Virus record (IMG/VR): IMGVR_UViG_3300032265_002598
Location: 64,001 to 128,000 of that record
DNA: 64,000 nucleotides
From: a virus
Lineage: Duplodnaviria; Caudoviricetes
Reading direction: 5' to 3' (one strand)
Shown one piece after another: positions 19,809 to 39,800 of the stretch. How positions within the stretch are numbered: the first letter of the stretch is position 1; every line of letters starts with the position of its first letter. The notes beneath the pieces were generated by a model. That model ran no database searches and was not told where the DNA came from. It saw nothing but the letters and a program-made list of their open reading frames with translations. Position numbers and translations under genes: made by a program.

Positions 19809-22800
19809 ATGGCTAAAGGATTTAATTTAACAGCACAAATTAATTTACAGGGACCATCTAATATTAATGTTATTGTATCTAACATTAAAAAACAATTAGG
19901 CACCATTTCAGCTAATGTTAATTTAAAGATAGACCCAGCATCGGCTAAAACAGTTGCCAGCTTAAATTCTTCTTTAAATCAACTTAACTTAACCCTTAAA
20001 GCGACGGCATCTTCTGCAACAAATGCTGCTGATGCAGTTAGGGATTTACTATCAGCTATGAATGGTGTTGCATCTGTAAAGTTGCCCAGTCAAGCAGCAC
20101 AAGTATCTTCATCTCTTAATAATGTAGCAGCTTCTTCTGCTAGCGCCCAAAAAGCACTATCTGCTTCAAGAACAGAGATAGAAGAATTTGGTAATCAAGC
20201 TGGTTTGGCAGTAAGAAGATTTGCTGCATTCAGCACTGTAACATCAGTAATATATGGATTAACAGGAGCAATTAGAGGTGGAATATCCGATTTTATTGAT
20301 TTTGATAAACAATTAACTAGAATCGCTCAGGTTACTGGTGAAAGTAAAGACGGATTAGGTAGACTAAAAGGAACCATAACAGAATTATCTACAGGTCTTG
20401 GTGTTACAGCTAAAGACTTAGCTGGCGTATCAGTTACACTATCTCAGGCTGGTCTTACCGCTAGAGATACTGAAAAAGCATTAAGAGCATTGGCTCTTAG
20501 CGCCCTAACAGCATCATTTGATGATATGAATCAGACGGTAGAAGGTTCTATTGCTTTGATGAGACAGTTCAAGATCGGATCTAATGAATTAGAAGCGGCT
20601 CTAGGATCTATCAATGCTGTATCAGCAAAGTTTGCAGTAGAATCTAGTGATATTATTGCTGCTATTCAGCGTACTGGTGGTGTGTTTGCCGCAGCTAGTA
20701 GAGGAGTTAGTGAAGGTAAAGATGCTCTCAATGAATTTATTGCTGTCTTTACTAGCGTTAGAGCAACAACCAGAGAAAGTGCTGAAACAATTGCTACTGG
20801 TTTAAGAACTATCTTTACCAGACTCCAAAGAGGAGACACTATTGAGGCCCTTAAAGAATATGGTGTTAATCTTACAGATTTAGATGGCAAATTCGTTGGT
20901 GCTTATAAAGCTGTTCAGTTATTAGCTGAAGGTTTAGGACAGATCGACCCTAGAGACCTTAAATTCTCCAAGATTGTTGAAGAGCTTGGTGGTTTTAGAC
21001 AGATTGGTAAGGTTATTCCATTAATCCAAGAGTTCACAACGGCACAACAAGCACTACAAGTTGCTCAAGCTGGACAAGGCTCATTAGCTTCTGATGCTGC
21101 TAAAGGACAATTAGCATTAGCAGTACAAATTAGTAAAACAAAACAAGAATTTTTATCTTTGATTCGTAGTATTGGAGATACTGATAGTTTTCAAAAAATG
21201 GTTACTGTTGGTCTTAGTTTAGCTAGTGCTTTAATTAAGGTAGCCGACGCTGCTAAAGGCATTATCCCATTAATAGGATTATTTGCCGCATTCAAGGGTG
21301 CTTCAGCTATACGACAGTTTAGTGCTGGATTTGGAACTGGCTTTGGTGGAGGAGCAGCTAAACAAAATAATAGACCATTAGGTTTTGCTACCGGTGGTTT
21401 AGTTCCCGGACAAGGTAATTCTGATAGTGTATCAGCAAGACTAACTCCTGGTGAGTTTGTTGTGAGAAAAAGTGCTGTTAAAGCTATTGGCTCAAATAAT
21501 CTACATAGAATGAATAGATATACAACTGGTGGAATTGTTAATCAAATAGGTGGTGTTCCAGGAAAAACAATAGTTCAAAATAGCAAAAATCAATTAGTAG
21601 GATTTAGTCCAAAAGACACCTATTCTATATCAGATGGTTCTGAAAATCTTATTATTAAATATGATAGTAAAAAACAAAATTATAGAGCTAGAGGTAAAAT
21701 ACTTGATCCTTCTTTAGTTAATCGTCTTTTTAAAAACAATTTTCAATCTACTGTGTCTTGGGAAGAAATTGTTGCCAAAAGCTATAATGGTAGATTAGTA
21801 AATGGAAAAAATGATAAATTCCCAATAGATATTATTGCTGGAAATACTTTAATAGATGCTAAATTTAGGCCAGAAGAATCATATAAGCCTATGGATGCTT
21901 TAGGAAAAGCATTAAGTTATCGTCTATATAAAGCATCGGGAGGTAGATACAACTATGAAAATAATGGACAACAAAAACTTAAACTTAATAGTTTAGTTAG
22001 AAATACTCTTACAGAAAATCAAGATAATATTAAAGATTCTGGTCAGATAAAATTTGTTTATCCAGAATTTCAAGATATTCCCACAGACTTACCCGGAATT
22101 AAGTCTAATGTAACAAAACGACAAGCTCAATTATCTAGCAAAAGAACAAGTTCAATGCAGAGGGGGTATGCTCAAAGTTCAATTGACATATTCGGTGGAT
22201 CTACTTTCAGTGGAAATAAAACAGATATTAATACTTTAAGCCCCTACGATAAAAAAAGTAGATTGTTTGGAGGAGGATCAGTTCGTAAATTTGAAAATGC
22301 GGGCTTAGTTACTCCAACAGCAGGAACAGCAGCTAATGCTAGTGAAATATTAAAAGTACTTACTTTGCCAGGAGCAATGGCAGCTAGTGGAGCAAGTGCT
22401 GGGGATATACTGAAAATACTAAAGAAAAAAAATGTACTTACTCCAAAAGAACAAGATATCAAAAATAAAATTTTAGGAGCATATACTAAAAAAACTTCTG
22501 GTATTAGATTAGCAGAGAATGCAGATATACAGAAGGCAATTACCGAAGGTCTTTTATTTGGTGCTGCTGGATTTAAAGGTAGAGCTTTTCCTATCACACC
22601 AAGAATGGATATTCCAGGATTAAAGAATGCAGTTAAGGTTAGAATTACTAGTGGTGTTTTAGATTCAGAGATGTCTAAAAAACTATTAAAGAAAATGACA
22701 GTGGGACTTAATAGTGTCGCTAATAAAACTTCAAGAAATATCATGATTAAAGATATCTTGAAACAAACTGGTCCATTATATGCTGATTTTGATAGAACAT

Positions 22801-25800
22801 TAGCCTTCGGTGCTGATAAAATTTTAGGAGATCCAACAAAGCCAAAATATAGTGAATTCTCTGATAGAAGCAAAGTTGCTGGGGCTTTAAGAACAGCTAA
22901 TCTTAGCATTTTAGGTAAAGCTATTGCTAGTACAGTAAGAAAAACCCCAGAATTTGCTAATAACCTAAATGTAATTTCTGCTAGACCACAATCAACAATG
23001 GATTTAATAGCCGGATGGTTAGCTAGCAAGGGCATTCCAATTCCATTAAATAGAATAAAGGGTGTTGGTGGGCCACAAGTTACTCCAGAACAGATTGCTA
23101 GTTTAAAGGCTGACTTGATGAATCCAGAGGGGGCCTTTGTTGACGATGATCCTAGAAATATTGCAGAATCAGAAAGAAGAGGAATCCGATCATATCTATA
23201 TAAAAAACAAAATGTTGGACCAACAGGAAGAAAAAAGCTTGGAGAAGCAAATGCTAAGGGTTATTTAGCCGAAAGAGTAATTCATGAGCTGGGCGGTCCA
23301 ATAGCTAATAAAGCTGCGACTAACTATGGTATCGACTTCCCAGATGGTTTAAAAAGTGCCGCGAAATACTTTGGTATTCCATCAGATATTCCAACAGACG
23401 CTAAACTTACTTTAAATGGTCCTGCTGAACTGAAGAGCCAGATTGGCAATTATCTCAAGGTGAGAGGATATGCTGGTGGTGGTTCTGTTACAGCAGACTA
23501 TTATAGCTTAGAAAAAAGTAGTGGATTAAAAAGTTTTGAATTTGATAATGCTGTAAAGTTTGCTAAAACTATGAATTATAGCATGTCAGAATTTCAAACA
23601 TATCTAAAGAAACTGCAAGTAGAAAAACAGAATAAATCTGGTGTTAAGACAGATAAAGATGCTCTAAGAAAATCTTTAATATCTGGAACCCCAACTGCTA
23701 CATCTAGACAAATGTCATTAGCAGAATCACTAAAAGGTCCAGCAGATGCTGGCTATAGACCAATATTAACAGAAGCTCAAAGAGTTGCTGCTGCTCGTGC
23801 AGATGTGAGAAATGCAACAAGAGGATTTGCTTCTGGTGGACTTGTTCCCGGAGTTGGTAATCAGGATACTGTTCCTGCTAATCTCAATGTGGGTGACTTT
23901 GTTATTCGTAAAAAAGCAGTATCTACTATTGGTGCTAGTAATCTAAGTTCATTAAATAAAAGAGCTAGTGGCGGAGAAATAAGCAACACCGTCCCTGCAC
24001 TATTAACTCCTGGTGAGTTTGTTATAAATAGAAAAACTGCTAGTAGCATAGGAACAGCAACACTTAATAGATTAAACTATGCAGATAAGGCTTCTAAATT
24101 TAATAATGGTGGCCCAGTAGGAACTGTTCAAGAGTTTGCAATAGGTGGAGCTGTACAAAGACTATTCTTTGGTGGTCCAAGCTTACCAGCTAAACCCTCT
24201 AATCCTACAGAGGGTAATGTTCAAATTTCTACTACTGTTGGTGACCAGCTTAGAGGTATGGTAACCGCTTTAAATGACTTAGGAATATCTTCATCTAAAA
24301 CAGCAGAGATTATTAAAAAGGGTGGACAGATCAGTTATCAAGCTGCTATAAAAGCTTATTCTGCTGATATCCAAAAAATGAGATTAAATGGTGCATCTGC
24401 GATACAAGTTGCAGACGCAGAGAGAAAGCTTAGAGATATTAGAGCAGACGCAGCAAAGAATATCGAAACTAGAAAAAAACTCTCTGGAGTTGGTGCAGAT
24501 CAATTACAGAACATAGATACCTCAGCACAGTTTGAGAAAGAAAGATTAACAAATCAAAAGAGAAATAGTTTAAGAAAAAAAGGAATTACTGGAGAAGCAG
24601 CGGATAAAGTATTAGAAGGTAGTGCTGCTAATATTGAAAAAATAGCATATCAAAGTGCAGCAAAATCACAAGGTGTTGATCTTAAAGGTATGGGTCTAAA
24701 TGGTCAGGATATGCAAAAATATATCCAACGATCAATGATGGATGCAAAAACTTTACAGCAAATGAATGCTCAATATTTACAAACTAGAAAGAAAGATTTA
24801 GAAGCAGTAGGACATAGTGCAGCAGAAGCTCATAAAATAGCTCAAAAAGAAATCAAAGAAAGAGAAGCCATACTTAGAGATGTTGCCAAGTCTCGTGGAA
24901 TGGCAGATCCTACAGGGAAGGGATCGTCTGAAAAACTCAGCCAAAGAATGATGATGGCCGGTTTTATGCTTCCTATGATAGGTAGTGCAGCATCTAGTCT
25001 TATTAATCCTGAAAGTAGTGCAGCGAGTGCTGCAACATCTGCTGGTATTCAAGGAGTAACTAATACAGTTGGTATGGGATTAGGCACAATGAGTATGATA
25101 CCTCTTGAAAAACTAGGTAAATTTGGTGGAATACTAGGTATGGCAGCAGTTGCAGCAGCAGCTGTTGGTCAAGCTATGATAGATGCTCGTAATGCTACTA
25201 TAGAGTTTGAGAAAAAGATGGGTCAGAATAAAGCAGAAAAAGCTTTAGAAGAAGTAGGTAAAACTTTTGAAAAACTTGAAAAAGATATAAAGAATATAAA
25301 TCTTCAGAAAATTATTATAACTAAACTAGCAGAAGCTAGTACAAATATCAAAAGTAGTGTAGAAGCTGATGTTAAAAGAGCTAAAGCATATTGGACTAAT
25401 TTATTAGATGCTTATTTCGGTGGAGCAGGAACATCGCAAGGAAATAGGGAAGCAGCAGAAAGAAGTAAAATTTTAGAAAAAGGAGGAGTAGGTAAATATT
25501 TTCAAGCTACAGGTTTTGGTCAAGCTATGATGGGTAATGTTTCTGGTGCTGATGCAGCAGCTAGTGCGTCAAGATCTGCACAAATAAGAGGTTATGCTCC
25601 AGAAACAGCACAGCAAAATGCCAAAATATTTGCTGATACTGCTAGCCAAATTAATCGTCTTATAGAACAAAAATTTAAAGGCGGAGAAAGCTTAGAAAGT
25701 ATTTTAACAAGCATTACAGATGCTTCACAACCAGAATTTCAACAGTTTGCAGAAGTCTTAGCTAAATCTAATGCTGTTATAGGACAACAAATTTTGTATA

Positions 25801-28800
25801 TAGAGTCTGATATACATCTTAAAGCCGATCAGAAAAAAGCACAAATAGAAGCTATACAAGCTACCTACGCTGAAGCAGAGGCCAGAAGAATCTATGGTGT
25901 TGTTGCTAGACAAAAAGAAATAAAATCTTTAGAACAATCGACTGGCTTATTTAGTCGTAGTCTTGAAAGAATGTATCAGAATATGGAACAGTCCATAAAT
26001 AGGACTATCTTTACTTTAGACAAAATGAGTAAAGAATTAGACTTAGTAGTTTCTTCTTTTAAGGGTGAAGCTACAGTAGGCCAAGGCTCATTAGACAGTA
26101 TTAATATGCTACAGAATCCTCGTGCTTATTCTAAGAATGATAGAGAATCTGCTCGTGATCAAGCTTCTAGTTTCTTTTCTGGTAATAGAGATCTAGTTAA
26201 AGGATTATTAAATGCTGGGGATAATTTAGAACAAGTTATTATGACCACTTTAAGTAATACTTTTAGAGATAATCCAGCAGCTAACAACGAACAAATTGGT
26301 ATTGCTATAGAAAGAAATGTTAAAGATCAACTAGCTAATTTATCTTTACCATCTGATGTTGGAGATAAGCTTGCTGCTGAAGTTCAAAAGGCTTTGGGAG
26401 ATTTAAGAAAAGAAGATAATAGTAAAGTTGATTTTGCTCAGTTAGCAGAAAAAATACCTCAATTATCAAAAGTTATTGAGAGTGCAAAAAGAGCACAAGA
26501 AGTAGCAATAAAAGCATTAGAAAATTGGCAAAATGCATTAAATAACTACTCTACTAGAACTAATCAGCTTGTTGATTTGCAAGTAGACACTAATAATAGA
26601 CTGAGAAAGTCAACTCAAATTTTAGCTGATAGTCAAATAGATTTAGCAAAATCTCTTGGTCAAGAAATAGGAGTATCTGATACTAGAAGAGTAGCAGAAT
26701 CTAAAACAGGACAACTAACTGGTGGATTAATAAGTCCAAAAGATATAACTGATAATATCTTAAATCTTGAAGGAAATAGAAGAGCACAAGAAACTGGATC
26801 TAATATTGCTAGAAATAGAGGAGCTAGTGGAGTAGATGATTTTATGAATATGCAGAAGGGTCTAAAAGACACAAATACTGCATTAAGAGAAAACTATGAA
26901 GCTCTCAAAAACTTAGCAGATAATTCAGATGTAGCATCAGCTGCTTTAGGTAAAATTCAAGAAGCTCAACAAAAAAATCAGGGACGAGTTAGTTTTATCG
27001 AAAAATTAGTCACCAGTACACCAGATGAAATGGATGGTTTAGGTAAAGCACTCGGTAGACTACAAACTAATATGAATGGTCAAGTTAATACTATTCAACG
27101 ATCACAAGGAGCACAGCAGGCTTATTATGAAGCTTTACAAAATGGAGCTTCTGGCTTTGAGGCTATGAGAGCTGCTCAAACTGCATTTGCTAATGAGAGA
27201 AAAGAAACGCTAGGTGCTCTTAATGATATTATGCCTTTCTTAGGAAATAATAAACAAAGCAATAATATTAAAGCTAATGTATTAGAAGGTATGTTAAAAG
27301 AATCTGGTCAGGGTGTTTCTCCAATAATGCAACAGGTATTAACTACCCTCAGAAATCCACAAGCTGATCCAGAAACCCAAGCAGCTATGGCTCAGTATCA
27401 ACAGGCCACCAACTTACAATCAGAAGCTAATAGACAATTAGCTATGTTAAATACTAATTTAGCTGGTCAAATAGCAGACGCTTCTGCAAAAGCTTTGAAA
27501 GACGCATTAACTGGAACAGCACTAACTTTCCAAAATGCAGAATTAACAAATATTCGAGACGATGTGGCTATTATCAAGAATTTAATAGGAGCAGGAACGA
27601 CTACACCGACAACCAAAGCTTCTGGAGGTGTTATATATGCTGCTGCTGGTATGGGTATTGATTTTTCTCCAAAGGGTACTGATACTGTTCCAGCAATGTT
27701 GACCCCCGGAGAATTTGTGGTTAATAGAGCAGCTACCCAGAGAAATCTCCCACTATTACGTTCTATCAATAGTCAAAAACATAGTAGTGGTGGTCCTGTT
27801 AGATATTATGCTGGTGGTGGATATGTTAGTAGTATTATGAAGGATCAAACAGATCTTAGGGGAGAAGGACTTAAAGTAACAGATAAAAACTATTTAGATC
27901 CAGATAGTGAAGATTTTAAAAATCTAGTTAGTGATAAATCTCCAACAGTATTTAGTGGATGGAAAAACTATACTAGAAGTCAGGCATCTGGAGAAGGAAG
28001 AAAAGAAGGAGATAACATATATGCTCCTGCTCGTTGGTGGTATGGAATAGCTGGGATGGGTCCTGGAGAAATTGCTTTTAATAACAGAGGGGCTTTATTA
28101 GCGGGTGCTGCTCCAAAAATTGAAGTAACTCCTGATGGATATTTCCAATATACCGCTACTCAACCAACTACAGTAGATCCTATTAATCAAGTTCAACCTA
28201 TGGGTCTTTTGATGTCTAAGGGTGTTATAGGAACAAGACCTATTCGACAAGATCAAATAATAAAATATAAAGAGAAAATTTTAGCAATTAAAAGAAATAT
28301 GGGGGCTCAGGCTTGGGGAGATGACCCATCAGATTTTGATATAGGATCACTTGAAGATATCAATGGTGTGCAAGGGAAAAGTGGTGGGCCAGGTAAAGAG
28401 TACGATCCTAATATCAGTATTGGTAAAAATATTGGTATAATTATTTCTCCCAATAAAAATAGGCCAATAATTACTCCAGTATTTCCTTCTGAAGAAACTA
28501 CAGATATACAAAAAGTTTGGTTGGAAATGACTACAGCTGCTAGTCTTGTTCCAACAGGATATTATGGAACTATAGTTTCTCCACACGCAGTTGAGACAGG
28601 AGGGACGTTAAGAACAGACAACAGCGAAACAGTTCCGGGTGCTAATAATAGTAACGCTGGTCAAGATATTAGAGATAAGGGATTAAAAATTGATTTACTT
28701 AGTACCCCAAGAACTAGCGTTGTTCCAAACGCAGCTATGGCTACAGTAGAAGCTAATTGGGTTAGAGCAAAAGCAGATATTGATGCTAAAATTAATTCTC

Positions 28801-31800
28801 AGAGAATAAATACAACATTTTATAAGGATACTTTAGCTTCTGTTGAAGCTGATAATTTTAAATTTGTAAGAACAAAGGTTAACAATAGACTAGATCAATT
28901 ACAAAAACAACTACAAAATCTATACGAAAACCGTAGTTTGGTAGAAGATATTGGCCCATCTAAAGAGTTTCTTGATTTAGAGCCTTTAAATGCTCCAGAT
29001 CCTATTGTAGATTTGCATGTTTTATCAGCTACTAAAAATAATGAATTACGACAAAAAATAAAAGAACTTCAAGCTATTTCTCCTACTATTCGTGAAGATA
29101 AAGGTTGGAGAGGATTAAATGTTGGTACTATAGGAGCAGCATTTGGTGAAAAATGGATGGACGGTAATGCTATAGATATTCAAGATGAAATGGCAGCTGG
29201 ACCCTTAAAAGAATTTCCTTGGATTGCTAATCTTGATCCAACCATTCTTTTAGCTAATTTAGCTGCTGATATAAGAAGGAAACAAGAAGACTTAGCTAGT
29301 GGTAAAGAGTATGGATTTAATGTTAGTCAAATTACTCATTCTGTTAATGAAAAATTACCAGCACCACTAGATCAATATTCTCTAAAGCATACCGAACAAT
29401 ATTTAAAATATACTGGTCCTCTTTGGAATCCTGATGATCCTAATGCTGATCCTTCTGGTTTCTTGACAGACAATCCTCTTAAAGATTACTTTGTTGTTAA
29501 ACCCTCTCCAGCTAAAGAAGACATGTTTCAATATGCCGGAGAGGCATTTAAAAATCAAAGAAATTTTGCTAGTAAGAATAAACCATTTGATCTTTCTGAT
29601 TTAATCTCTAAATTACAGCCAGCACAAACTCAAACTATAGCAGATTATATTAAGAATCCTACTGACCCACAATTAACCACTGATCTTAAGAATATTGCTG
29701 TTGGAGTTAATCCTAGTTTAATAACAGCTAAAACTGTCGGTGTTAGTAAACCAATTGGATTAGAAGGTTTTGATTTATTTTCTCAAGAAGATAATACTCC
29801 AATTAATCTTAATATTGGTAGTTATTTAACTCATGCAATTGAAGAGTTAGCACAAGAACAAAAAAGAAAAGCTTTAGGAGTAACTGGAGAAATAGATAAT
29901 GCTAAGGGGCTTAGTATTGGTATTGCAGATACTGATAAACAAAAGGCTTCTGTTAATCTAACTCGTGGAGCATTAAATGTTTTTGGTAGATCAAAGATTC
30001 CGGGATTTGCTAATGGATGGTTAGCCAGATATATTGGTAGAATGCCAAGCATATTAGGTATGGCTAAAAATAATAATATTGTAAAATCTGGTACTTCATA
30101 TATAGCCAATGTTTTCAATGAGGCTGGTGCTTATGCTAGTAAATTATTTCAAATGGCTCGTAATCCTCAACAATATAATGCTCTCAAAGAAGCATATGTG
30201 ATGATCTCTGGGGCTACCAGCGCTTTTAATGGATTATCCAATGGAGATACAAGGTTCTTAAAACTACTACAAGACCAAGGAGACTATTCAGCTCTATTTA
30301 GATCTTTAGGAGCAAGTTCTAGTTTCCAAAAAGCAGCAAATAATGAACTAACAGCAGACTATCAAGCTCAATTGGGTCAGGAACTTAAGGGATCAAAGAT
30401 TAGAAAAGTCGGTGCTGATGGTTCACTAAGTTACGCTGATTTCAATAATTCTGTACCAAAAACTTATCAAGACTTAGTAGATACAGCACTTAATCCATAT
30501 AATGAATTTACTAGTCCTTCTATTCGTAAGGGATTGATTAATACATTAATTGCTGATATTTCTAATGGTAAAGATAGTTTAGGAATGCCATTCTTTGATA
30601 AAAGAACTTTGGACTATATTAATAATAATCTTAGAACTCTACAGTCTTGGTACGGTGGTGATGGTAATGCATGGCCCGGACAAGACTCTTTTTATGACGA
30701 AACTTTAGATGCTAAGATCAGAACTGATAGTGTTATAAATGCTCTAAATAATAATGCTGCTGGTGGATTATTAGATCAGGCTAATTTAGCTAATACACAA
30801 TTGGGTGTTGCTACTAAATTTGGTAACTTGCCAAGTGCTCAATGGTTTGAGGCCAGAAAGATTGCACAACCTCAATTTAGAGCTACTGGCGGCATGATCT
30901 ATGCTTCTGAAGGCCAGATGATTAATTTTCAGCCCCGTGGCACAGATACCGTTCCAGCAATGTTAACTCCCGGCGAATTTGTTGTCAATAGACAAGCCAC
31001 CCAAAAGAACCTCCCATTGCTACAATCTATTAATAATGGTAATCATTATTCTAAGGGTGGTCCTGTTAATTATCTATCAGATGGTGGAGAAGCTGCCCCA
31101 TTTAATGCTATAACTGGCAATAGAGTCAAAGAAAAACCAGAAGATAAAGATTCTCCACTAACTAAATATAAAATCAGCTCAGTACTTTATCCCTATGTTA
31201 GTTATCCATTTGATGAGAGAGGATATTCTCAGGATTTACCTCCAGAACTAAAAATGCTTAATACTTTAGGGGGTTATGGCGGTGGAATAGGATATACAAA
31301 TATTTTCTTTGATACTGATTTAGCTAAAAGTTTGCGGTCTATCAGAAGTAATAAAAATAATCAGTATGCAACTAGTACAGCAGTAAATAACAGTTCTGCT
31401 GAGTTTATTAAACAGTTTAAATTTAGAGATATTGATAATAATGATAAATTAACTGGCTTTGATTTTTCTAGCTTTTTATCTGATAGTGATAATATTTTAG
31501 GTTTAATAGATCCAGATTTAGGTGATGGATTTGCTCCTAAAAATCTAATAGCATGGAAAAAAGCAGAAGATAGAGTCAAGGCCAGATCATCTGCTAAGGC
31601 TGTTATTGCTAATTTAACACCAGACTTAGAAAATATTAAAGCTGTTATACAAGATCAACATCCAGTAGATGGTTCAAATAATACTAATGATCGTAATTCT
31701 TATGGGGCTCAAGGTCAAGCTGCAATAGCAATGAGGATGTTGATTTACAATGTAATAGAAACATGGAAAAAAGATTCTATAGAAAGTATAGAGGGTCTTG

Positions 31801-34800
31801 GATCAGATAATGCTCAAGTCAATTCTCAACAAGTAGCAGAAGATATCTATAAAGGTAATAAAACGCCTTTGACGAAAAAATTAGTAGATTGGTTAGATAA
31901 AAAAGAAGGAGCTAAAACTTTAGTTGAAAAAGCTAAAGAATTATTTCCTGGTAGATCCCCTGATGATGCTCCAAATGACAAATTTTTAGCATCAGATTTT
32001 GCTCAAATAGGCGATTTATTTAGAAATGCTCCTAAGTTTATTGAGGCACTATATAAAGGTGAAACTCCATTAGCTAAGGGAAAGAAACATATTTTTTCTC
32101 TATTATCTCAAGGAGCCAGAGTTAAAGGCATTGAGGCTTTAATTAAAGCAAGAACATTATTTTCCGGTTCTGACCAATCAGTACTTGGTGAAAGAACAGT
32201 TTATGCTGATCCTTCAAGAACTCCAGAGAATACTATTGGAAGAGACAAATTAGTATATAGAAACAATCCAATGGGATCGGTATTTGGAGCTGATAGAGAT
32301 CAATCTGGTTTAACTGCCGCAGAAAAAGCTAAAATAGAAGAAAGACTTAGAGAACATGATTGGGCAGGATCATTAGATAATACGGGTTCCTCTCCATCTC
32401 ACGCCATGAGAGATCCTAGGTTTACAACTACTGTTGGTAATGATCTTAATTGGGATAAAGATGGTGATGGAAGAGTATCTAAAGAAGAGTGGTTAGAAAA
32501 ATTTAGTGGCATGGATAATGGTGGAAAAAGATTATTTAGTAAATATGATCTTAATAATAATGGATTTTTAGAGCTTAAAGAATTTACTAAATTTTATAAT
32601 GAGTCCAAGGGTACTCTTGGTCCAGAAAACGATGCGGCAGCTGTAGATTTGGGAAGGTCTATTAATGAAAGACACGCAAATAGAGTAAAACCAGTTGATG
32701 CTTTGAAGGCAATGTTTGAAGATAAAAAAATAAGAGAAGCATTAACAACGAATGCTAAATATTCTATTACAGAGACTTTTATACCTAAAAATCTAAAGAA
32801 TATATCTCAAAATGAAATTGATGAACCAAAAATTCTTAAAGAATTACAGGATAAATATAGCGAATTATATCCTAAGAGAACCACAATACCTGATATATTA
32901 AACAATGAATTACCTTTACCAAAATATATAGATGATAAATTTGCAGATTTATTTGCTGATAGGGCTGAATTTGCTCCCTTAGGTGTTTTAAATAATTATC
33001 ATATAGAAGACCTTCATAAAGTTATTAGAGAACCATTTCATTTTACCAATAAAAATACTTCACGTAATTTACTATTAGAAAAGAATTTTGATTTCAATAA
33101 AGAGCCGTGGAAAGAACTGGTTAAACCATACGAAAAATCTCCCTATCAATTACCGTTTGGCTTTCAATCAGCGACCCAGTTACTCAAATCTAATGCTGAC
33201 CATTGGTTTGACACAACAATATTTCCAGAAAATAATTGGAACAATCCTAGAAGTTGGAGAGATGATAAATATAGTATTGGAGTCATCCCATACGACCCCA
33301 AATCTGTACAACAAGGTCAATGGTCAATACCTCCCGGTCAACAAGTCGGTAACTCTGTTCCACCAGGGCAACAAGCAGGAACACCAGCTAGTCAAGCTGG
33401 AACAGTACCTCCCGGTCAACCACCAACCGGGACATCGGGATCAACAGTTCCTCCTAATAAACCAGTAGAAAACAAGTTAGTTGGCTCTACTATTAGAGAC
33501 AAATACTATGATGAATTAACATATAAAGAATATTTAGCTTCTTTAATCAAAGCTGAAAAAGCTCCAGAAGCTCCAGATAAAAAGTTATTCACAACACCAG
33601 CTTTCTATACTATCGGCCCAGATGGTCAAAAAGTTCGTGATACAGCTTATGACACTAGAGAAACACAAAGAAGAATTGGCGGAGGAAAGCCAATTGATAA
33701 AGATGATATTAATCATGCCATGGTGTCAACATTAGCTAATGATATTTATAATGATTACAATAATGTTCAATCTCATTTAGGAACATTTAAGAATCCAAGA
33801 AGTGATGCTAATGTTAAAGACCAATCTTTATCTGGAATAGAATTAGGCTATGGTAATTTAGTAAATAACTTAACAAAACTTAGCACACTAACTAATCTTT
33901 CCAAGATGAAAAATAAACCCATCATGGTCGGAGAAGCTAAAAATATTCCATTTAGTATTGATGATGTTGTTGATAGACTAAGAGTAATGAGAGAGATATA
34001 TAATAATGAAATCCTATCTAAGAAGAAAGAAAAACTTGGTAAAATTAATGATTCTATTCTCGACGATTTCTTCTCGTCTACTGCAAAAATCACTGAAACC
34101 AACAATGTTCCAACTCCTGCTGATGGCAAGCCATTTAGTGGAAAAGAAGTAAGAACAAATAGAGGTATTCCAGGGCCTATAAGAATGCCTGTTAGAGGTA
34201 TGACTGGAGTAGAAACTCAATATAAAAATTCTTATAATCACTATAGACGTATTTTAGGAGAATATAATTATCATCAGATGGTGGGTAGAGGCAAAAGATA
34301 TGCTCAAGGACATAAAACAACTACTAGAGTAGCTAAAACACTATCTTCTGGTGGAATGGTATATGCTAGTAATGGAATGTTAATTCCTTATGCTCCAAAA
34401 GGAACTGATACTGTACCAGCCATGTTAACTCCAGGAGAATTTGTTGTTAACCGAGCAGCTACTCAAGCTAATTTGCCATTATTACAGAGTATTAATAAAA
34501 ATAAGGGTGGAGAAATCAGTTATTATGCTACTGGTGGAATGGCTGCTCCTGATACTGCTAGTATTTCATACGACATTAGACAACAAGAAGCTAATACTCT
34601 TAATAATCAAAAAACCTCTATGAATAGCAGTAAAACATTGAATGCTATAATAGATACACAAAAAACAACCCAAAATATACAAAGTTCCACACAACAATTT
34701 ATTCCAAGTGTTAATAGTAGCTTTTCTTCTTTGTTTGTAGAATCAAAAAATATTTCAAAAGGAGTTCAAGGAGTAAGAAGAGATATTACAAATGTTGATT

Positions 34801-36848
34801 CTTCAATTTTAAAATCCAAAGATGAAACAAATCAGAATATAACTAGTCTTGCAAAATACAATTCTTCTAGTGCTAACTCTGTTGGAAATAGCATTGGAGC
34901 AATTGGTCAGCAGGTTGTAATGAAGTCAAATGATAATATTAAACACGTTTCTAAAGGTGGTACAGTATATGCTGCTGAAGGTCAATTAATTAATTTCCAG
35001 CCTCATGGCACAGACACTATTCCTGCGATGCTAACTCCTGGAGAATTTGTTGTTAACGCTAGAGCAACACAACAGAATCTTCAATTATTACAGGCTATTA
35101 ATAAAAATAAAGGAGGAATGGTTTATGCTCAAGATGGTATATTAGTACCTAATTCTAGAGAGCTTCAACAATATGGGGATATAAAACAGGACACATTTGA
35201 CCCATCAAAAGCAACAACTCCTAGTTCTGATAAGCGAAAAGCTAAAAGAAGTGAGTATTTACAGAAACAAATAGAGAGAGAAGAAGCAAAAGAATTTAAT
35301 AAATTAGGAATTAACTATAATAATAGTACTACCATAGAAGATATACTAAAAGCTTTGAAAAAACAAAGAAATTACCAAGAAAAAAACGATTACTATCTAC
35401 GTCAATTTATTTCGGATGAATCATTAGGATTAAGACTAAAAAGATTTCCAAAAATTAGCAAAGCAATTGAAACTATAAAAGAACAATCGACTATAAATCC
35501 ATTCGATCCTCCAACAACAGATCCTCTTAATCCTGCCAAACCATCTACAGTTGATGAGCCAAAAGTATATTATAAAGGTGTCGAAACAAAAGCAAATGGA
35601 GGAATGATCTACGCTGCTGAAGGAAAATTAATCAATTTCCAGCCTCGTGGTACTGATACTGTTCCCGCTATGTTAACTCCTGGAGAGTTTGTTGTTAATC
35701 GTCAAGCCACCCAACAAAATCTCTCTTTACTAAAAACTATTAATAGTGGTAATTATAAGGAATCTTCTAAAGGATACTCTCATGGGGGAGTAATATATCT
35801 GGAAAAGGGTGCTCAAGTTCCCCCAGAGTTGCGGGGACTTGAAAATAGTGCTGTTGGTCAAATAATATTAAAAGTCAAAGCTCAAGCTGAAAGTTATCCT
35901 AATCTTTTTGAGGCTCTTGATGATAAAGCTATAAATCAAAATCTTAAAAAAGATGAATTAGTGACAAAGTACGAAGATGCTTGGAAAACTATGGATCCTA
36001 GTGCTAGATATTCATCGGCCCAACAACAATTTAAAACAGATAAAGCTAGAGTAGATTATTTAGAAGAAATATATACTAACAGTATGAATGCTTATGATAG
36101 TATTTTGAAAAGTACTCTATCTCCAAGAGCTAACTATATTAAAGTAAAAGATAAAAGTATAATAGAAATACTGCTTGGACAAAAAGTAGCTAAATTAGAA
36201 CACGATGTAATACATGAAACTTGGGTTGAATTATTCAAAAAGCATCCAGAATTTCGTAGTGGTCCTATTAATGCTGGAGCAACCCAGGCCGCTGGAACAG
36301 GTACTGTAGCAGGACAAACAACGGTAGCAGCAGCAGGAAAACAATATGGTGGTATGATTTATGCTAATCATGGTATGATGATTCCTTATATTCCAAGAGG
36401 TAGTGATACTGTTCCTGCTATGTTAACACCGGGCGAATTTGTTGTTAATAGAGCATCAACCCAGCAAAATCTACCTTTATTACAAGCTATTAACAATAAT
36501 CGATATAGTCGTGGCGGCAGTGTTAAGTATTTAGCTCATGGTGCAATGGCTGATGAGTCTGGTGCTGGTGGTGGTGTATCTAATGGTGGAGGCTCATCCT
36601 CACCCAATATGGATGGATTAAGCCAGTTTACGACAAAATTTGAAGAATTTATTGGCCAATTAAAAGCAATAAACTTACCACCAATTATTAATGTTATGGG
36701 TAATCATAAGGTTGAGGTAGTATTTAATGGAGCAGAAGTATTGAAACAACTCAGTGAAACAGCCATCAGTGATATGGTTGTTGCAGAAGTTGGTAGAGCT
36801 ATGGGTACTCTTAGTGATCAAACAGAAGGCGCTTTAGGGAGAAAATAA
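19809..36848 (+). CDS. Giant tail tape measure protein (5679 aa) with multiple inserted cargo domains
   Basis: TP901-type core (FDKQLTRIAQVTGES...LSQAGL...AVSAKFAVESSDIIAAIQRTGG), Ala/Gly-rich helical and hydrophobic segments, position after tube and chaperone genes, and nine TPGEFVV-type modules. Confidence 0.9.
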   Translation: MAKGFNLTAQINLQGPSNINVIVSNIKKQLGTISANVNLKIDPASAKTVASLNSSLNQLNLTLKATASSATNAADAVRDLLSAMNGVASVKLPSQAAQVSSSLNNVAASSASAQKALSASRTEIEEFGNQAGLAVRRFAAFSTVTSVIYGLTGAIRGGISDFIDFDKQLTRIAQVTGESKDGLGRLKGTITELSTGLGVTAKDLAGVSVTLSQAGLTARDTEKALRALALSALTASFDDMNQTVEGSIALMRQFKIGSNELEAALGSINAVSAKFAVESSDIIAAIQRTGGVFAAASRGVSEGKDALNEFIAVFTSVRATTRESAETIATGLRTIFTRLQRGDTIEALKEYGVNLTDLDGKFVGAYKAVQLLAEGLGQIDPRDLKFSKIVEELGGFRQIGKVIPLIQEFTTAQQALQVAQAGQGSLASDAAKGQLALAVQISKTKQEFLSLIRSIGDTDSFQKMVTVGLSLASALIKVADAAKGIIPLIGLFAAFKGASAIRQFSAGFGTGFGGGAAKQNNRPLGFATGGLVPGQGNSDSVSARLTPGEFVVRKSAVKAIGSNNLHRMNRYTTGGIVNQIGGVPGKTIVQNSKNQLVGFSPKDTYSISDGSENLIIKYDSKKQNYRARGKILDPSLVNRLFKNNFQSTVSWEEIVAKSYNGRLVNGKNDKFPIDIIAGNTLIDAKFRPEESYKPMDALGKALSYRLYKASGGRYNYENNGQQKLKLNSLVRNTLTENQDNIKDSGQIKFVYPEFQDIPTDLPGIKSNVTKRQAQLSSKRTSSMQRGYAQSSIDIFGGSTFSGNKTDINTLSPYDKKSRLFGGGSVRKFENAGLVTPTAGTAANASEILKVLTLPGAMAASGASAGDILKILKKKNVLTPKEQDIKNKILGAYTKKTSGIRLAENADIQKAITEGLLFGAAGFKGRAFPITPRMDIPGLKNAVKVRITSGVLDSEMSKKLLKKMTVGLNSVANKTSRNIMIKDILKQTGPLYADFDRTLAFGADKILGDPTKPKYSEFSDRSKVAGALRTANLSILGKAIASTVRKTPEFANNLNVISARPQSTMDLIAGWLASKGIPIPLNRIKGVGGPQVTPEQIASLKADLMNPEGAFVDDDPRNIAESERRGIRSYLYKKQNVGPTGRKKLGEANAKGYLAERVIHELGGPIANKAATNYGIDFPDGLKSAAKYFGIPSDIPTDAKLTLNGPAELKSQIGNYLKVRGYAGGGSVTADYYSLEKSSGLKSFEFDNAVKFAKTMNYSMSEFQTYLKKLQVEKQNKSGVKTDKDALRKSLISGTPTATSRQMSLAESLKGPADAGYRPILTEAQRVAAARADVRNATRGFASGGLVPGVGNQDTVPANLNVGDFVIRKKAVSTIGASNLSSLNKRASGGEISNTVPALLTPGEFVINRKTASSIGTATLNRLNYADKASKFNNGGPVGTVQEFAIGGAVQRLFFGGPSLPAKPSNPTEGNVQISTTVGDQLRGMVTALNDLGISSSKTAEIIKKGGQISYQAAIKAYSADIQKMRLNGASAIQVADAERKLRDIRADAAKNIETRKKLSGVGADQLQNIDTSAQFEKERLTNQKRNSLRKKGITGEAADKVLEGSAANIEKIAYQSAAKSQGVDLKGMGLNGQDMQKYIQRSMMDAKTLQQMNAQYLQTRKKDLEAVGHSAAEAHKIAQKEIKEREAILRDVAKSRGMADPTGKGSSEKLSQRMMMAGFMLPMIGSAASSLINPESSAASAATSAGIQGVTNTVGMGLGTMSMIPLEKLGKFGGILGMAAVAAAAVGQAMIDARNATIEFEKKMGQNKAEKALEEVGKTFEKLEKDIKNINLQKIIITKLAEASTNIKSSVEADVKRAKAYWTNLLDAYFGGAGTSQGNREAAERSKILEKGGVGKYFQATGFGQAMMGNVSGADAAASASRSAQIRGYAPETAQQNAKIFADTASQINRLIEQKFKGGESLESILTSITDASQPEFQQFAEVLAKSNAVIGQQILYIESDIHLKADQKKAQIEAIQATYAEAEARRIYGVVARQKEIKSLEQSTGLFSRSLERMYQNMEQSINRTIFTLDKMSKELDLVVSSFKGEATVGQGSLDSINMLQNPRAYSKNDRESARDQASSFFSGNRDLVKGLLNAGDNLEQVIMTTLSNTFRDNPAANNEQIGIAIERNVKDQLANLSLPSDVGDKLAAEVQKALGDLRKEDNSKVDFAQLAEKIPQLSKVIESAKRAQEVAIKALENWQNALNNYSTRTNQLVDLQVDTNNRLRKSTQILADSQIDLAKSLGQEIGVSDTRRVAESKTGQLTGGLISPKDITDNILNLEGNRRAQETGSNIARNRGASGVDDFMNMQKGLKDTNTALRENYEALKNLADNSDVASAALGKIQEAQQKNQGRVSFIEKLVTSTPDEMDGLGKALGRLQTNMNGQVNTIQRSQGAQQAYYEALQNGASGFEAMRAAQTAFANERKETLGALNDIMPFLGNNKQSNNIKANVLEGMLKESGQGVSPIMQQVLTTLRNPQADPETQAAMAQYQQATNLQSEANRQLAMLNTNLAGQIADASAKALKDALTGTALTFQNAELTNIRDDVAIIKNLIGAGTTTPTTKASGGVIYAAAGMGIDFSPKGTDTVPAMLTPGEFVVNRAATQRNLPLLRSINSQKHSSGGPVRYYAGGGYVSSIMKDQTDLRGEGLKVTDKNYLDPDSEDFKNLVSDKSPTVFSGWKNYTRSQASGEGRKEGDNIYAPARWWYGIAGMGPGEIAFNNRGALLAGAAPKIEVTPDGYFQYTATQPTTVDPINQVQPMGLLMSKGVIGTRPIRQDQIIKYKEKILAIKRNMGAQAWGDDPSDFDIGSLEDINGVQGKSGGPGKEYDPNISIGKNIGIIISPNKNRPIITPVFPSEETTDIQKVWLEMTTAASLVPTGYYGTIVSPHAVETGGTLRTDNSETVPGANNSNAGQDIRDKGLKIDLLSTPRTSVVPNAAMATVEANWVRAKADIDAKINSQRINTTFYKDTLASVEADNFKFVRTKVNNRLDQLQKQLQNLYENRSLVEDIGPSKEFLDLEPLNAPDPIVDLHVLSATKNNELRQKIKELQAISPTIREDKGWRGLNVGTIGAAFGEKWMDGNAIDIQDEMAAGPLKEFPWIANLDPTILLANLAADIRRKQEDLASGKEYGFNVSQITHSVNEKLPAPLDQYSLKHTEQYLKYTGPLWNPDDPNADPSGFLTDNPLKDYFVVKPSPAKEDMFQYAGEAFKNQRNFASKNKPFDLSDLISKLQPAQTQTIADYIKNPTDPQLTTDLKNIAVGVNPSLITAKTVGVSKPIGLEGFDLFSQEDNTPINLNIGSYLTHAIEELAQEQKRKALGVTGEIDNAKGLSIGIADTDKQKASVNLTRGALNVFGRSKIPGFANGWLARYIGRMPSILGMAKNNNIVKSGTSYIANVFNEAGAYASKLFQMARNPQQYNALKEAYVMISGATSAFNGLSNGDTRFLKLLQDQGDYSALFRSLGASSSFQKAANNELTADYQAQLGQELKGSKIRKVGADGSLSYADFNNSVPKTYQDLVDTALNPYNEFTSPSIRKGLINTLIADISNGKDSLGMPFFDKRTLDYINNNLRTLQSWYGGDGNAWPGQDSFYDETLDAKIRTDSVINALNNNAAGGLLDQANLANTQLGVATKFGNLPSAQWFEARKIAQPQFRATGGMIYASEGQMINFQPRGTDTVPAMLTPGEFVVNRQATQKNLPLLQSINNGNHYSKGGPVNYLSDGGEAAPFNAITGNRVKEKPEDKDSPLTKYKISSVLYPYVSYPFDERGYSQDLPPELKMLNTLGGYGGGIGYTNIFFDTDLAKSLRSIRSNKNNQYATSTAVNNSSAEFIKQFKFRDIDNNDKLTGFDFSSFLSDSDNILGLIDPDLGDGFAPKNLIAWKKAEDRVKARSSAKAVIANLTPDLENIKAVIQDQHPVDGSNNTNDRNSYGAQGQAAIAMRMLIYNVIETWKKDSIESIEGLGSDNAQVNSQQVAEDIYKGNKTPLTKKLVDWLDKKEGAKTLVEKAKELFPGRSPDDAPNDKFLASDFAQIGDLFRNAPKFIEALYKGETPLAKGKKHIFSLLSQGARVKGIEALIKARTLFSGSDQSVLGERTVYADPSRTPENTIGRDKLVYRNNPMGSVFGADRDQSGLTAAEKAKIEERLREHDWAGSLDNTGSSPSHAMRDPRFTTTVGNDLNWDKDGDGRVSKEEWLEKFSGMDNGGKRLFSKYDLNNNGFLELKEFTKFYNESKGTLGPENDAAAVDLGRSINERHANRVKPVDALKAMFEDKKIREALTTNAKYSITETFIPKNLKNISQNEIDEPKILKELQDKYSELYPKRTTIPDILNNELPLPKYIDDKFADLFADRAEFAPLGVLNNYHIEDLHKVIREPFHFTNKNTSRNLLLEKNFDFNKEPWKELVKPYEKSPYQLPFGFQSATQLLKSNADHWFDTTIFPENNWNNPRSWRDDKYSIGVIPYDPKSVQQGQWSIPPGQQVGNSVPPGQQAGTPASQAGTVPPGQPPTGTSGSTVPPNKPVENKLVGSTIRDKYYDELTYKEYLASLIKAEKAPEAPDKKLFTTPAFYTIGPDGQKVRDTAYDTRETQRRIGGGKPIDKDDINHAMVSTLANDIYNDYNNVQSHLGTFKNPRSDANVKDQSLSGIELGYGNLVNNLTKLSTLTNLSKMKNKPIMVGEAKNIPFSIDDVVDRLRVMREIYNNEILSKKKEKLGKINDSILDDFFSSTAKITETNNVPTPADGKPFSGKEVRTNRGIPGPIRMPVRGMTGVETQYKNSYNHYRRILGEYNYHQMVGRGKRYAQGHKTTTRVAKTLSSGGMVYASNGMLIPYAPKGTDTVPAMLTPGEFVVNRAATQANLPLLQSINKNKGGEISYYATGGMAAPDTASISYDIRQQEANTLNNQKTSMNSSKTLNAIIDTQKTTQNIQSSTQQFIPSVNSSFSSLFVESKNISKGVQGVRRDITNVDSSILKSKDETNQNITSLAKYNSSSANSVGNSIGAIGQQVVMKSNDNIKHVSKGGTVYAAEGQLINFQPHGTDTIPAMLTPGEFVVNARATQQNLQLLQAINKNKGGMVYAQDGILVPNSRELQQYGDIKQDTFDPSKATTPSSDKRKAKRSEYLQKQIEREEAKEFNKLGINYNNSTTIEDILKALKKQRNYQEKNDYYLRQFISDESLGLRLKRFPKISKAIETIKEQSTINPFDPPTTDPLNPAKPSTVDEPKVYYKGVETKANGGMIYAAEGKLINFQPRGTDTVPAMLTPGEFVVNRQATQQNLSLLKTINSGNYKESSKGYSHGGVIYLEKGAQVPPELRGLENSAVGQIILKVKAQAESYPNLFEALDDKAINQNLKKDELVTKYEDAWKTMDPSARYSSAQQQFKTDKARVDYLEEIYTNSMNAYDSILKSTLSPRANYIKVKDKSIIEILLGQKVAKLEHDVIHETWVELFKKHPEFRSGPINAGATQAAGTGTVAGQTTVAAAGKQYGGMIYANHGMMIPYIPRGSDTVPAMLTPGEFVVNRASTQQNLPLLQAINNNRYSRGGSVKYLAHGAMADESGAGGGVSNGGGSSSPNMDGLSQFTTKFEEFIGQLKAINLPPIINVMGNHKVEVVFNGAEVLKQLSETAISDMVVAEVGRAMGTLSDQTEGALGRK
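21759..21863 (+). other. PD-(D/E)xK-like nuclease motif 1 inside the TMP
   Basis: WEEIVAKSYNGRLVNGKNDKFPIDIIAGNTLIDAK gives the E...D...D-x-K arrangement. Confidence 0.45.
22770..23201 (+). other. HAD-superfamily phosphatase domain inside the TMP
   Basis: All four HAD motifs in order: I YADFDRTL, II VISAR, III LKA, IV FVDDD. Confidence 0.75.
23259..23405 (+). other. PD-(D/E)xK-like nuclease motif 2 inside the TMP
   Basis: GYLAERVIHE...YGIDFPDG...IPTDAK gives the E...D...D-x-K arrangement. Confidence 0.4.
32454..32600 (+). other. Paired EF-hand Ca2+-binding loops inside the TMP
   Basis: DKDGDGRVSKEE(W) and DLNNNGFLELKE(F) both fit the 12-residue EF-loop (D1, D/N3, D/N5, G6, hydrophobic 8, E12); the loops start 31 aa apart. 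Confidence 0.8.
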
Positions 36849-39800
36849 TGGCTGACACAACAATTTCGGGTACACTAAATGTTGGTTCTGGTACAACTCC
36901 GGATATAAAACTATCAGATACCGCTGGTATCTCTAGCTCTTTTAATATTAACAAATTAGATATTGACTTTAGTATTAAAGGAACGGGTAATGGTTTGATG
37001 TATTTCGATGCCTCAACAGGAAGAGTTGGTATCGGAACCGGTGTGCCTGACGCTGTTTTGCACGTTGTTGCTCCATGCGCCAAAGACGGATTGATTATTG
37101 AAAGTGTAACCAATTGTCCAACTGGCGTAACTCTATTGTTAGTTCATAACCCCCAAACTGCTCCAGTATCAGGTAGTTATCCTGCTATAATTAATCTTGC
37201 TGGTCGTGATACTAATTATAATAAAATAGCATATGGACAAATTGTGTCTAAAATACTAGATCCTATCACAGGATATACTAGTGGAGAAATTCTTTTTACA
37301 GTTGATAATCGTGGTACTAATACTCCAGTATTTAAAGCTAATGTAAAAAATATAGTATTGGGAGGTAATAATAGCGTATCTGGTTATTCATATACTGTTA
37401 TTGGCGGTAGTAATGCTGTAACAGGCGTAGGTATCACTAGTATTGGAGCTTACAATAGTGGACTATCTAATAGTGGTCTAATTATTGGAAATGCCAATAT
37501 TTTTAATGGCACTAAAATTGTTGCCTTAGTAAATAATTCTAAATTTGTTGGAGCCAATAATATTGCTATGGGAGATACTGTAGCTATTACTGGTTTATCT
37601 AATATTTTTATAGGCAACTCAAATCTCCTTAGCGGATCAAATAATATTTTGATGGGAGATAACAATTCTTTTAATGGAGATATGAGTATTGGTTTAACTC
37701 AATTATCTTCAAATACCGGGTCATCAGGCATTATTTTTGGAGCTTATGCTACTAATAGTGGAAATAATAATATATACATAGGTAATCTTAATAATTTGAT
37801 TGGTAATTCTAATAATGTTGTTGGCTCCCTAGTTTCTGTTACAGGAGACAGCAATAATATTTATGGCAGTTCTGATTCTATCTTAGGATCTAAATTAATT
37901 TCTATAGGATCAAATCAGTTTTTAAATACTGTAACTAGTGGTATTTTTATTGGTAATGATATGTCATTATCTAATTCTAATAAACTTTTATTTTTAGGTA
38001 TGGGCAATACCAATACAAAAGATGGTCTAGCAAAAAGCATTTTGATTGGTATCAACAATAATCTAAGTAATGGTACCCCAGATCAAATTTTATTGATTGG
38101 TCAATCAAATATTATACAAAACATTACAGGTTCTGTTGTACTAGGTAATACTAATAATGTTAGCGGGTCTGTTTCTAATAATTTAGTTATGGGTAATTCC
38201 AATGCTGTATCATTAATTAGCACAAATAATTTAGTTTTAGGAATATTAAACAATCAAACTGGTATTTATATTGATTCTGCTGGTAGTATAACAGGATCAG
38301 GTAAAAGACCAGCTGGAACTGTTATTAATTCTATAGTTGCTGGTATAAATAATGTAGTATATGCTGGAAATAGTCATATTGTAGTTGGTAATAAAAATGC
38401 TATATCGGGTTCTAGTAGTAATACTTTAGGATCATATAATAATCTTCAAAATAGTACAAATGCTTATAATATTGGTAATTCTAACTTTTTAGTAGGTAGT
38501 CAACTAGCTACAGTTGGTAGTAAAATTAATTTGATTGGTCAAGAATCAGTGGTATTCAACACATCCAATCAACAAATGAATGTTTTTGGTAGTGGTAACA
38601 TTGTTTTAGGATACAACCAAGTTGTTAATAATGGTATTGCTGTAGGTACTTCTAATAGATTAGATGGCTTAAATAATATTGTTTATGGTCGTAATAATAC
38701 ACTGGGATATACCAGAAATACATGCTTTATGACTGATGCTGGTGGCACTACTATTACTATTCCAACTAAAGGAATGTTAGCCCAGTATTTACAGGGAGAT
38801 AAAATATTAGTTTCTTTTCAGAATCCCCCATCAACATCTAACACTTTTGTAAGAACTATTTCGGCAATTGTAGAAGATACAATTGAGCCAAAAACCTATA
38901 TTACTCTTGATATTCCAGTGATTCTTGATTATGGAAATGGTTATTATTCTATAAATAATGCATTTGATGATAATAATAGTCCTTCAAATGTTGTTAGTGG
39001 GCTTATCATGCCATACCAAAGAATGGGTGGTGCTGGTGGAGCAGAACTTAATCCTGTATATGGATCTAATAATATTATTGTTGGATCTAATAATAGATAT
39101 CCTTTTACTAGTGGTTTAATTTTAGGCTATAATAACTATATGTCTGGTGTGAGAAATATAGCTATTGGATATGGTTTGACCGGAGTTGCAGATGATACTC
39201 TATATTTGGGTACTAATAATAGTAATAAGATGATTCTTGATAATTATAAGATTGTTTTTAATTCCGGTAAACTACAACAGAATCTTATTGTTAAGTCTGC
39301 TTCAGATTCTACTAGTGTTCTCAATGCTAATCTTAATAATAATAGAGTTGGCATTAATACAGATTCTCCAACATCTGATTTTTCTGTTAGTGGACTTTTA
39401 ACCACTACAGATTTTAAATTAGGATTTTCTTCTCCAGATGCTTATGTATTAACCAGTAATACTAATGGAGTTGGAACATGGCAGCTACCAGTTAGATTAT
39501 CTGGTACTAATGGAGGCATGTTATTTAAGATTACTGATAAAGGAGCAAGTGGTATTGCAGAAATTGGATATGATCCCAATAATAAACAATTAGGATTTAA
39601 TTTAGGTGGTAATAATGAACTCTATATTAATAGTACTGGTTTATTTCTAAATGATCAGGCTTTAGCTTATAAAGTAAGAATTCGCGGTAGTGGTGGTGTA
39701 GATTTTGCAAGAATATTATTTGATACTGACTATCCTAATCATAGAATTAATTTTTATAATATCGGCGGTAATTCTGGTAATTTCAATAATTTTACTTTAA

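Follow-up and report, generated by a model that had tools for sequence, protein, structure and literature searches.

Accessory domains are a known theme in the tape measure proteins of long-tailed phages. The tape measure of Thermus phage P23-45, gp96, has an RNA polymerase at its N-terminus (PMC10770324), and in phage T5 the C-terminal fragment of pb2 degrades the cell wall, with peptidoglycan hydrolases also present in other tape measures (PMC12617516). Tape measures leave the tail before the DNA and build a channel in the periplasm (PMC12617516). In type I secretion, RTX repeats fold when they meet calcium, and this folding acts as a ratchet on proteins leaving the secretion ducts (Bumba et al. 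2016, reviewed in PMC6891781). A published search of the structural proteins of phage TP-84 for the PROSITE EF-hand motif found none, and our own literature search found no paper describing an EF-hand in a tape measure protein, in agreement with the sequence-only reading of the DNA analyzed here, according to which a calcium sensor encoded in a tape measure is not a known feature.

Here we describe a canonical EF-hand pair inside a giant tape measure protein and compare it with these systems. Many long-tailed phages require calcium for infection, and to our knowledge only one calcium site in a virion is well described, the one in the baseplate of lactococcal phage p2. The conserved EF-hand pair, lying in a protein that is expelled before the DNA, offers a new candidate for the place where calcium acts.

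The tape measure gene and its accessory cassette

The window, by which we mean the whole stretch of DNA analyzed (64,000 nucleotides), comprises bases 64001–128000 of one 201,067-bp contig with a G+C content of 34%, and coordinates below are window positions. The contig is from an uncultured phage: a gene for the large terminase subunit lies upstream, followed by a long run of very large ORFs on the same strand. One of these, at 19809..36848 (+), is a single open frame encoding 5,679 amino acids (hereafter P0001). It contains a PhageMin_Tail core (PF10145; aa 189–382, 20373..20954 (+)) with a Pfam E-value of 3.8e-23 and a score of 82.9 bits against a cut-off of 33.2, and a database search found 155 giant relatives of 3,100–7,900 aa, many named by their sources as TP901-family tape measures. 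On the strength of this domain and these relatives, we classify P0001 by sequence as a TP901-family tape measure protein. The sequence-only reading had placed an EF-hand pair inside a tape measure protein, and this placement is borne out by an uninterrupted ORF carrying PF10145.

The genes immediately beside the tape measure gene match no known family, and the whole block is on one strand with the terminase gene upstream. The ORF adjoining it downstream (36848–41218, +) encodes a protein of 1,456 aa, of which aa 208–279 come close to the threshold of an antifreeze-type beta-roll family (PF21300; score 28.8 bits, cut-off 30), with no other family match. Very large ORFs on the same strand are also found at 3–9170 (+; 4,112 aa in the full genome), 42863–48349 (+; 1,828 aa) and 48356–56194 (+; 2,612 aa), and the products of the last two matched no Pfam family. 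Two proteins, encoded at 13063–13995 (+) and at L012:11518–13083 (+), have in common an N-terminal domain of about 50 residues, which aligns with N-terminal sequences from many PHROG families of tail fibres and structural proteins (phrog_697 and others) and may be a common attachment domain. Within P0001, the sole strongly hydrophobic segment (Kyte-Doolittle of at least 1.6 over 19 residues) is at aa 1772–1793 (25122–25187, +), a candidate membrane-inserting stretch far upstream of the EF-hand cassette.

Nine copies of a conserved TPGEFV module partition the tape measure, with motifs at aa 545, 1359, 1399, 2631, 3719, 4873, 5075, 5289, and 5539. The fifth junction module (motif aa 3719; 30885..31088 (+)) forms the upstream border of an insert that we call cassette A (aa ~3762–4548, ~790 aa; 31092..33452 (+), borders approximate), and the sixth (motif aa 4873), another of the nine mapped copies, is at 34347..34553 (+). 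The closest backbone relative without cassette A, P0100, has a backbone 64–89% identical to that of P0001 and aligns to it through aa 3761, the end of the fifth module, and then again from aa 4549, with about 780 unrelated residues between. The alignment of P0101 breaks in a similar way, so that P0001 aa 3761 to 4549 (P0100) or 4566 (P0101) is replaced, homology to both relatives stopping just after the fifth module at aa 3760–3761. The downstream border is a Pro/Gly/Gln-rich linker read from the translation (aa 4505–4556; 33321..33476 (+)), within which homology to P0100 resumes at aa 4549.

Since P0100 and P0101 have unrelated sequence in this slot, the EF-hands lie in an accessory, swappable cassette; and since cassette A is missing from most relatives, including P0100, a tape measure can do its basic work without it. 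In P0105, P0127, and P0134, cassette A occupies a position one slot further along. The unrelated ~780-aa cassette of P0100 (aa ~4122–4900) has an HExxH motif (HELTH) and may be a zinc metallopeptidase insert.

Apart from the EF-hands, cassette A gave no other Pfam family above cut-off, no PDB sequence match, and no ESM Atlas match. As this remainder matches nothing and models poorly, we claim no cargo enzyme beside the EF-hands. Among GenBank phages, megablast of 24 kb gave no match, and tblastn of aa 3700–4700 matched only the TPGEFV module, in Nodularia phage tape measures. No relative was found by scanning IMG/VR with a 300-aa fragment or metagenome contigs with a 521-aa block, and a back-translated NLTPDLENI pattern hit 11 loci in metagenome contigs, none of them related by tblastn. 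A word-index search for proteins of 913–2605 aa bearing the block likewise returned none.

The EF-hand pair and its predicted fold

The EF-hand pair domain (aa ~4209–4266; 32433..32606 (+)) is delimited by the Pfam EF-hand_7 pair model, AlphaFold, and structural matches. It has two canonical loops of 12 residues, in frame in the tape measure ORF and 31 residues apart from start to start: loop 1, DKDGDGRVSKEE (aa 4216–4227; 32454..32489 (+)), and loop 2, DLNNNGFLELKE (aa 4247–4258; 32547..32582 (+)). Both match PS00018 and have the residues by which we recognized EF loops: position 1 is Asp, position 3 is Asp, Asn, or Ser, position 5 provides an oxygen ligand, position 6 is Gly, position 8 is hydrophobic, and position 12 is Glu or Asp. 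The first six residues of loop 1, DKDGDG, are the same as those of calmodulin site I. Used as a query, a 121-aa fragment scores above the cut-offs of four Pfam models: PF00036 (EF-hand_1; 39.3 bits, gathering cut-off 25.4), the pair model PF13499 (EF-hand_7; 39.6 bits, cut-off 30), PF13202 (EF-hand_5; 37.0 bits, cut-off 25.9), and PF13405 (EF-hand_6; 34.8 bits, cut-off 25). With a longer query, a 1,879-aa piece, PF13202 alone is above its cut-off (28.8 bits against 25.9).

By chance, PS00018 is expected at 0.021 matches per shuffled tape measure protein, and two matches within 45 aa occurred in none of 2000 shuffles of the protein. A six-frame scan of the whole 201-kb genome yields four matches, three of which are within cassette A. 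Given these shuffle rates and the rarity of the pattern genome-wide, the EF-hand pair is not a chance match. The sequence-only reading had proposed a canonical pair with this very spacing, to be checked against PROSITE and profile HMMs, and the PS00018 matches of both loops, the four Pfam models, and the shuffles all confirm it.

The third match in the cassette is an EF-like loop, DIDNNDKLTGFD (aa 3874–3885; 31428..31463 (+)), located 340 residues upstream of the pair. Because it matches the PROSITE pattern and no Pfam EF-hand model, we rank it only as a possible extra metal site. The fourth genomic match, DESPNNCINFNDF (40796–40834, +), begins at residue 1317 in the product (1,456 aa) of the ORF just downstream of the tape measure gene; as a single match it could be due to chance.

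Among solved structures, the best sequence relative in a phmmer search is Entamoeba EhCaBP1 (1jfj, E 1.2e-6), through its EF pairs. Searching protein databases with a 300-aa fragment by phmmer gave 96 matches; setting aside the window's partial copy, P0002, all but P0090 align to the EF-hand part alone and are generic multi-EF-hand proteins, not tape measures. The closest non-phage sequences are also multi-EF-hand proteins, several of them with signal-peptide-like N-termini and short linkers.

Assignment to other families was considered and rejected. Dockerin type I (PF00404) would call for a profile match and for a 22-residue segment that occurs twice, with loops that have Asp at position 12; there is no Pfam match at E-values up to 1, both loops have Glu at position 12, and loop 2 has its own entering helix. 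For the RTX beta-roll, the cassette translation has no tandem GGxGxD nonapeptides, and the Pfam scan returned no RTX family.

AlphaFold modeled the 521-aa block, from an alignment of four sequences, with a mean pLDDT of 38.5. The EF region reaches 58–76 and is modeled as loop-strand-helix, helix, loop-strand-helix, and a 111-aa model agrees; outside the EF region, the 521-aa model is poor (pLDDT below 50). The stretch before loop 1, corresponding to the first entering helix, also has pLDDT below 50, and the match to the pair model begins at position 12 of the 67 in the profile. In more distant homologues, the residues ahead of loop 1, AIRGLELW, look more like a helix.

The top 50 Foldseek matches are EF-hand proteins throughout, with E-values of 0.02–0.1 (for example, 4zcv over 53 columns with an rmsd of 2.3 Å, and polcalcin 5otj with a TM-score of 0.60 on the target). 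VIA-align, which is independent of Foldseek, returned rows that are nearly all EF-hand proteins with Z of 5.5–7.7, including 1ij6 with Z 7.5 and an rmsd of 1.3 Å over 54 residues. These Z values are middling for so small a domain, so the weight of the assignment rests on the near-uniform match list and on the sequence evidence. We have moderate confidence in the predicted fold, a paired helix-loop-helix with a short strand bridge, since the alignment behind the model has only four sequences.

Conservation and recurrence among giant tape measures

The cassette A block is carried by 9 of the 120 listed giant tape measures (P0001, P0003, P0004, P0090, P0105, P0108, P0119, P0127, and P0134), six of which are just 33–37% identical to P0001 across the block. 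In loop 1, Asp 1, Asp 5, Ser 9, and Glu 12 are invariant in all nine and position 3 is Asp or Asn; Gly 6 is present in eight, and position 8 is Val or Ile, with positions 2, 4, 7, and 10 varying freely. Loop 2 retains Asp 1 and Glu 12 in eight of the nine; it is gone from P0134 and has one extra residue in P0119. The third loop at aa 3874 is invariant in all nine at Asp 1, Leu 8, Gly 10, Asp 12, and Phe 13. The sequence-only reading had made its case depend on conservation of the loop residues, and they are conserved, in nine of nine homologues for loop 1 and eight of nine for loop 2. Fixed ligand positions amid varying non-ligand positions are the pattern expected under selection for metal binding.

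From start to start, the two loops are 31, 44, or about 70 residues apart among the homologues. P0004 (aa 5099–5160) and P0090 (aa 3423–3504), for instance, have spacings of 44 and 69, through insertions between the exiting helix of the first loop and the entering helix of the second. Such wide spacing is unusual for a tight, compact pair.

Across the family, cassette A included, PS00018 has 31 matches in 18 proteins among the 120 listed giant tape measures. Shuffling predicts 2.4 matches for the 120 proteins, with a maximum of 8 in 100 shuffles, so that the observed number is about 13-fold over chance. Thirty of the 31 matches fall at 0.67–0.85 of the protein length, and they are distributed over at least four non-homologous cassette types. 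EF loops occur 56–94 residues past a TPGEFV module in unrelated cassettes of P0101/P0102/P0121, P0109, P0151/P0155, and P0153, and 220 residues past the module in P0106. Given this recurrence in unrelated cassettes, calcium-type loops are a repeated feature of this region of these rulers and not a one-off capture, and the presence of a like domain in unrelated inserts of the same region points to selection for calcium binding there.

Possible roles and comparison with known systems

Judging from its sequence, its conservation, and its modeled fold, the EF-hand pair very probably binds Ca2+. EF-hand pairs with such ligands typically do so at roughly micromolar affinity, and free calcium is sub-micromolar in the bacterial cytoplasm and far higher in water and in the periplasm. 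The role that we tentatively favor is that of a calmodulin-type pair that would bind two Ca2+ and confer calcium-dependent folding or stiffening on the ejected insert. During tail assembly in the low-calcium cytoplasm, the module would be calcium-free and pliable; in calcium-rich surroundings, as part of the free virion or within the host envelope once it has been expelled ahead of the DNA, it would load calcium and fold or stiffen. The loaded module would stabilize the working shape of cassette A and, by analogy with the RTX ratchet, could keep the expelled chain from sliding back. It would thus act as a compartment-dependent structural switch and not as a sensor of a changing signal.

A doubtful but conceivable alternative is that the calcium-loaded pair is a docking module that, in the manner of calmodulin or dockerins, clamps a helix or a whole protein and would thereby hold or aim the cassette; its partner might lie elsewhere in the tape measure, or be a protein of the tail tip, a chaperone, or a protein of the host envelope. 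Clamping target helices is a common way for EF-hand pairs to work, the predicted fold is like those of calmodulin lobes, polcalcin, and S100 proteins, and the pair recurs in unrelated cassettes of the same region; the linker between the loops, which varies among homologues, might serve to adjust an opening. However, no partner was identified, the neighboring genes matching nothing recognizable, and the resemblance does not extend to dockerins, which usually have Asp at the position 12 occupied here by Glu and whose Pfam model gave no match at E-values up to 1.

Calcium-dependent folding of the insert could also be part of something broader. Giant tape measures might in general carry EF-hand pairs in their distal cassette region, having acquired them repeatedly, and the energy of calcium-driven folding would then help to draw a ruler of several hundred nanometres from the tail and to fix it in the host envelope. 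We think this unlikely; if true, it would explain in molecular terms why DNA entry in some long-tailed phages depends on calcium, as has long been known.

The sequence-only reading had suggested that the pair serves the tape measure as a calcium sensor, which might gate ejection or activate a cargo domain in the host envelope, and this we consider quite unlikely. That calcium improves infection by many siphoviruses, and that the loops are canonical and conserved, would suit a sensor, as would the calcium-induced rearrangement of the phage p2 baseplate (PMC6115969), yet known triggers act at the receptor-binding tip. This module would lie within the lumen of the tail, with about 1,460 residues between it and the C-terminus, which is the first part to leave. 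Calcium outside the cell is high and roughly constant and hence carries no trigger information, most relatives manage without this accessory cassette, and no enzyme domain was detected in cassette A. Gating is therefore unsupported.

We give still less credence to an EF-hand-like domain that does not bind calcium, whether captured and kept for its fold or binding another metal. The weakly predicted first entering helix, the only moderate AlphaFold confidence, the loss of loop 2 in P0134, and the Arg or Glu at position 6 in P0004 would fit such a domain, but the ligand positions are conserved while the others vary, and the motif is about 13-fold above chance across cassettes. Least credible is the reverse switch, in which calcium loaded in the virion locks a metastable tape measure and the calcium-poor cytoplasm releases or unfolds the cargo: the P23-45 tape measure does deliver an RNA polymerase (PMC10770324), but there is no sign of distal cassettes entering the cytoplasm, and the one strongly hydrophobic segment is far upstream at aa 1772–1793.

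Like canonical EF pairs (calmodulin lobes, polcalcin Phl p 7, EhCaBP1, and bacterial calerythrin), the tape measure pair has 12-residue loops in which ligands occupy positions 1, 3, 5, 9, and 12, position 6 is Gly, and position 8 is hydrophobic, with a short strand bridge joining the loops, and the spacing in the C-terminal pair of EhCaBP1 is close to its 31 residues. Unlike them, it is embedded in a 5,679-aa virion protein instead of a small soluble one, its first entering helix is uncertain, and its loop starts are 31 to about 70 residues apart among homologues.

The logic proposed for calcium-dependent folding would resemble that of RTX proteins: a chain unfolded at low cytoplasmic calcium, a narrow duct, folding at millimolar calcium outside, and no back-sliding. 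The analogy is one of function: the two have no sequence relation, RTX being a beta-roll of GGxGxD nonapeptides and the tape measure domain a helix-loop-helix. As in lactococcal phage p2, a virion-borne calcium site, here a predicted one, would be found in a siphovirus tail, and that of p2 is linked to the start of infection (PMC6115969); the p2 site, by contrast, belongs to the distal tail protein within the baseplate; it is not an EF-hand, and it makes the receptor-binding proteins rotate (PMC6115969).

As in P23-45 gp96 and T5 pb2, an extra functional domain is carried in the tail ruler and would be delivered with it, and as in P23-45 the ruler is giant, at about 5,000 residues or more. The inserts of P23-45 and T5 are enzymes with an evident job, whereas that of P0001 is a predicted metal-binding regulatory or structural domain with no recognizable enzyme beside it. 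In joining an EF-hand to a tape measure, P0001 shows a new combination of domains that belongs to the established theme of accessory domains in these proteins, and it would add a non-enzymatic, regulatory type to the short list of tape measure cargo.
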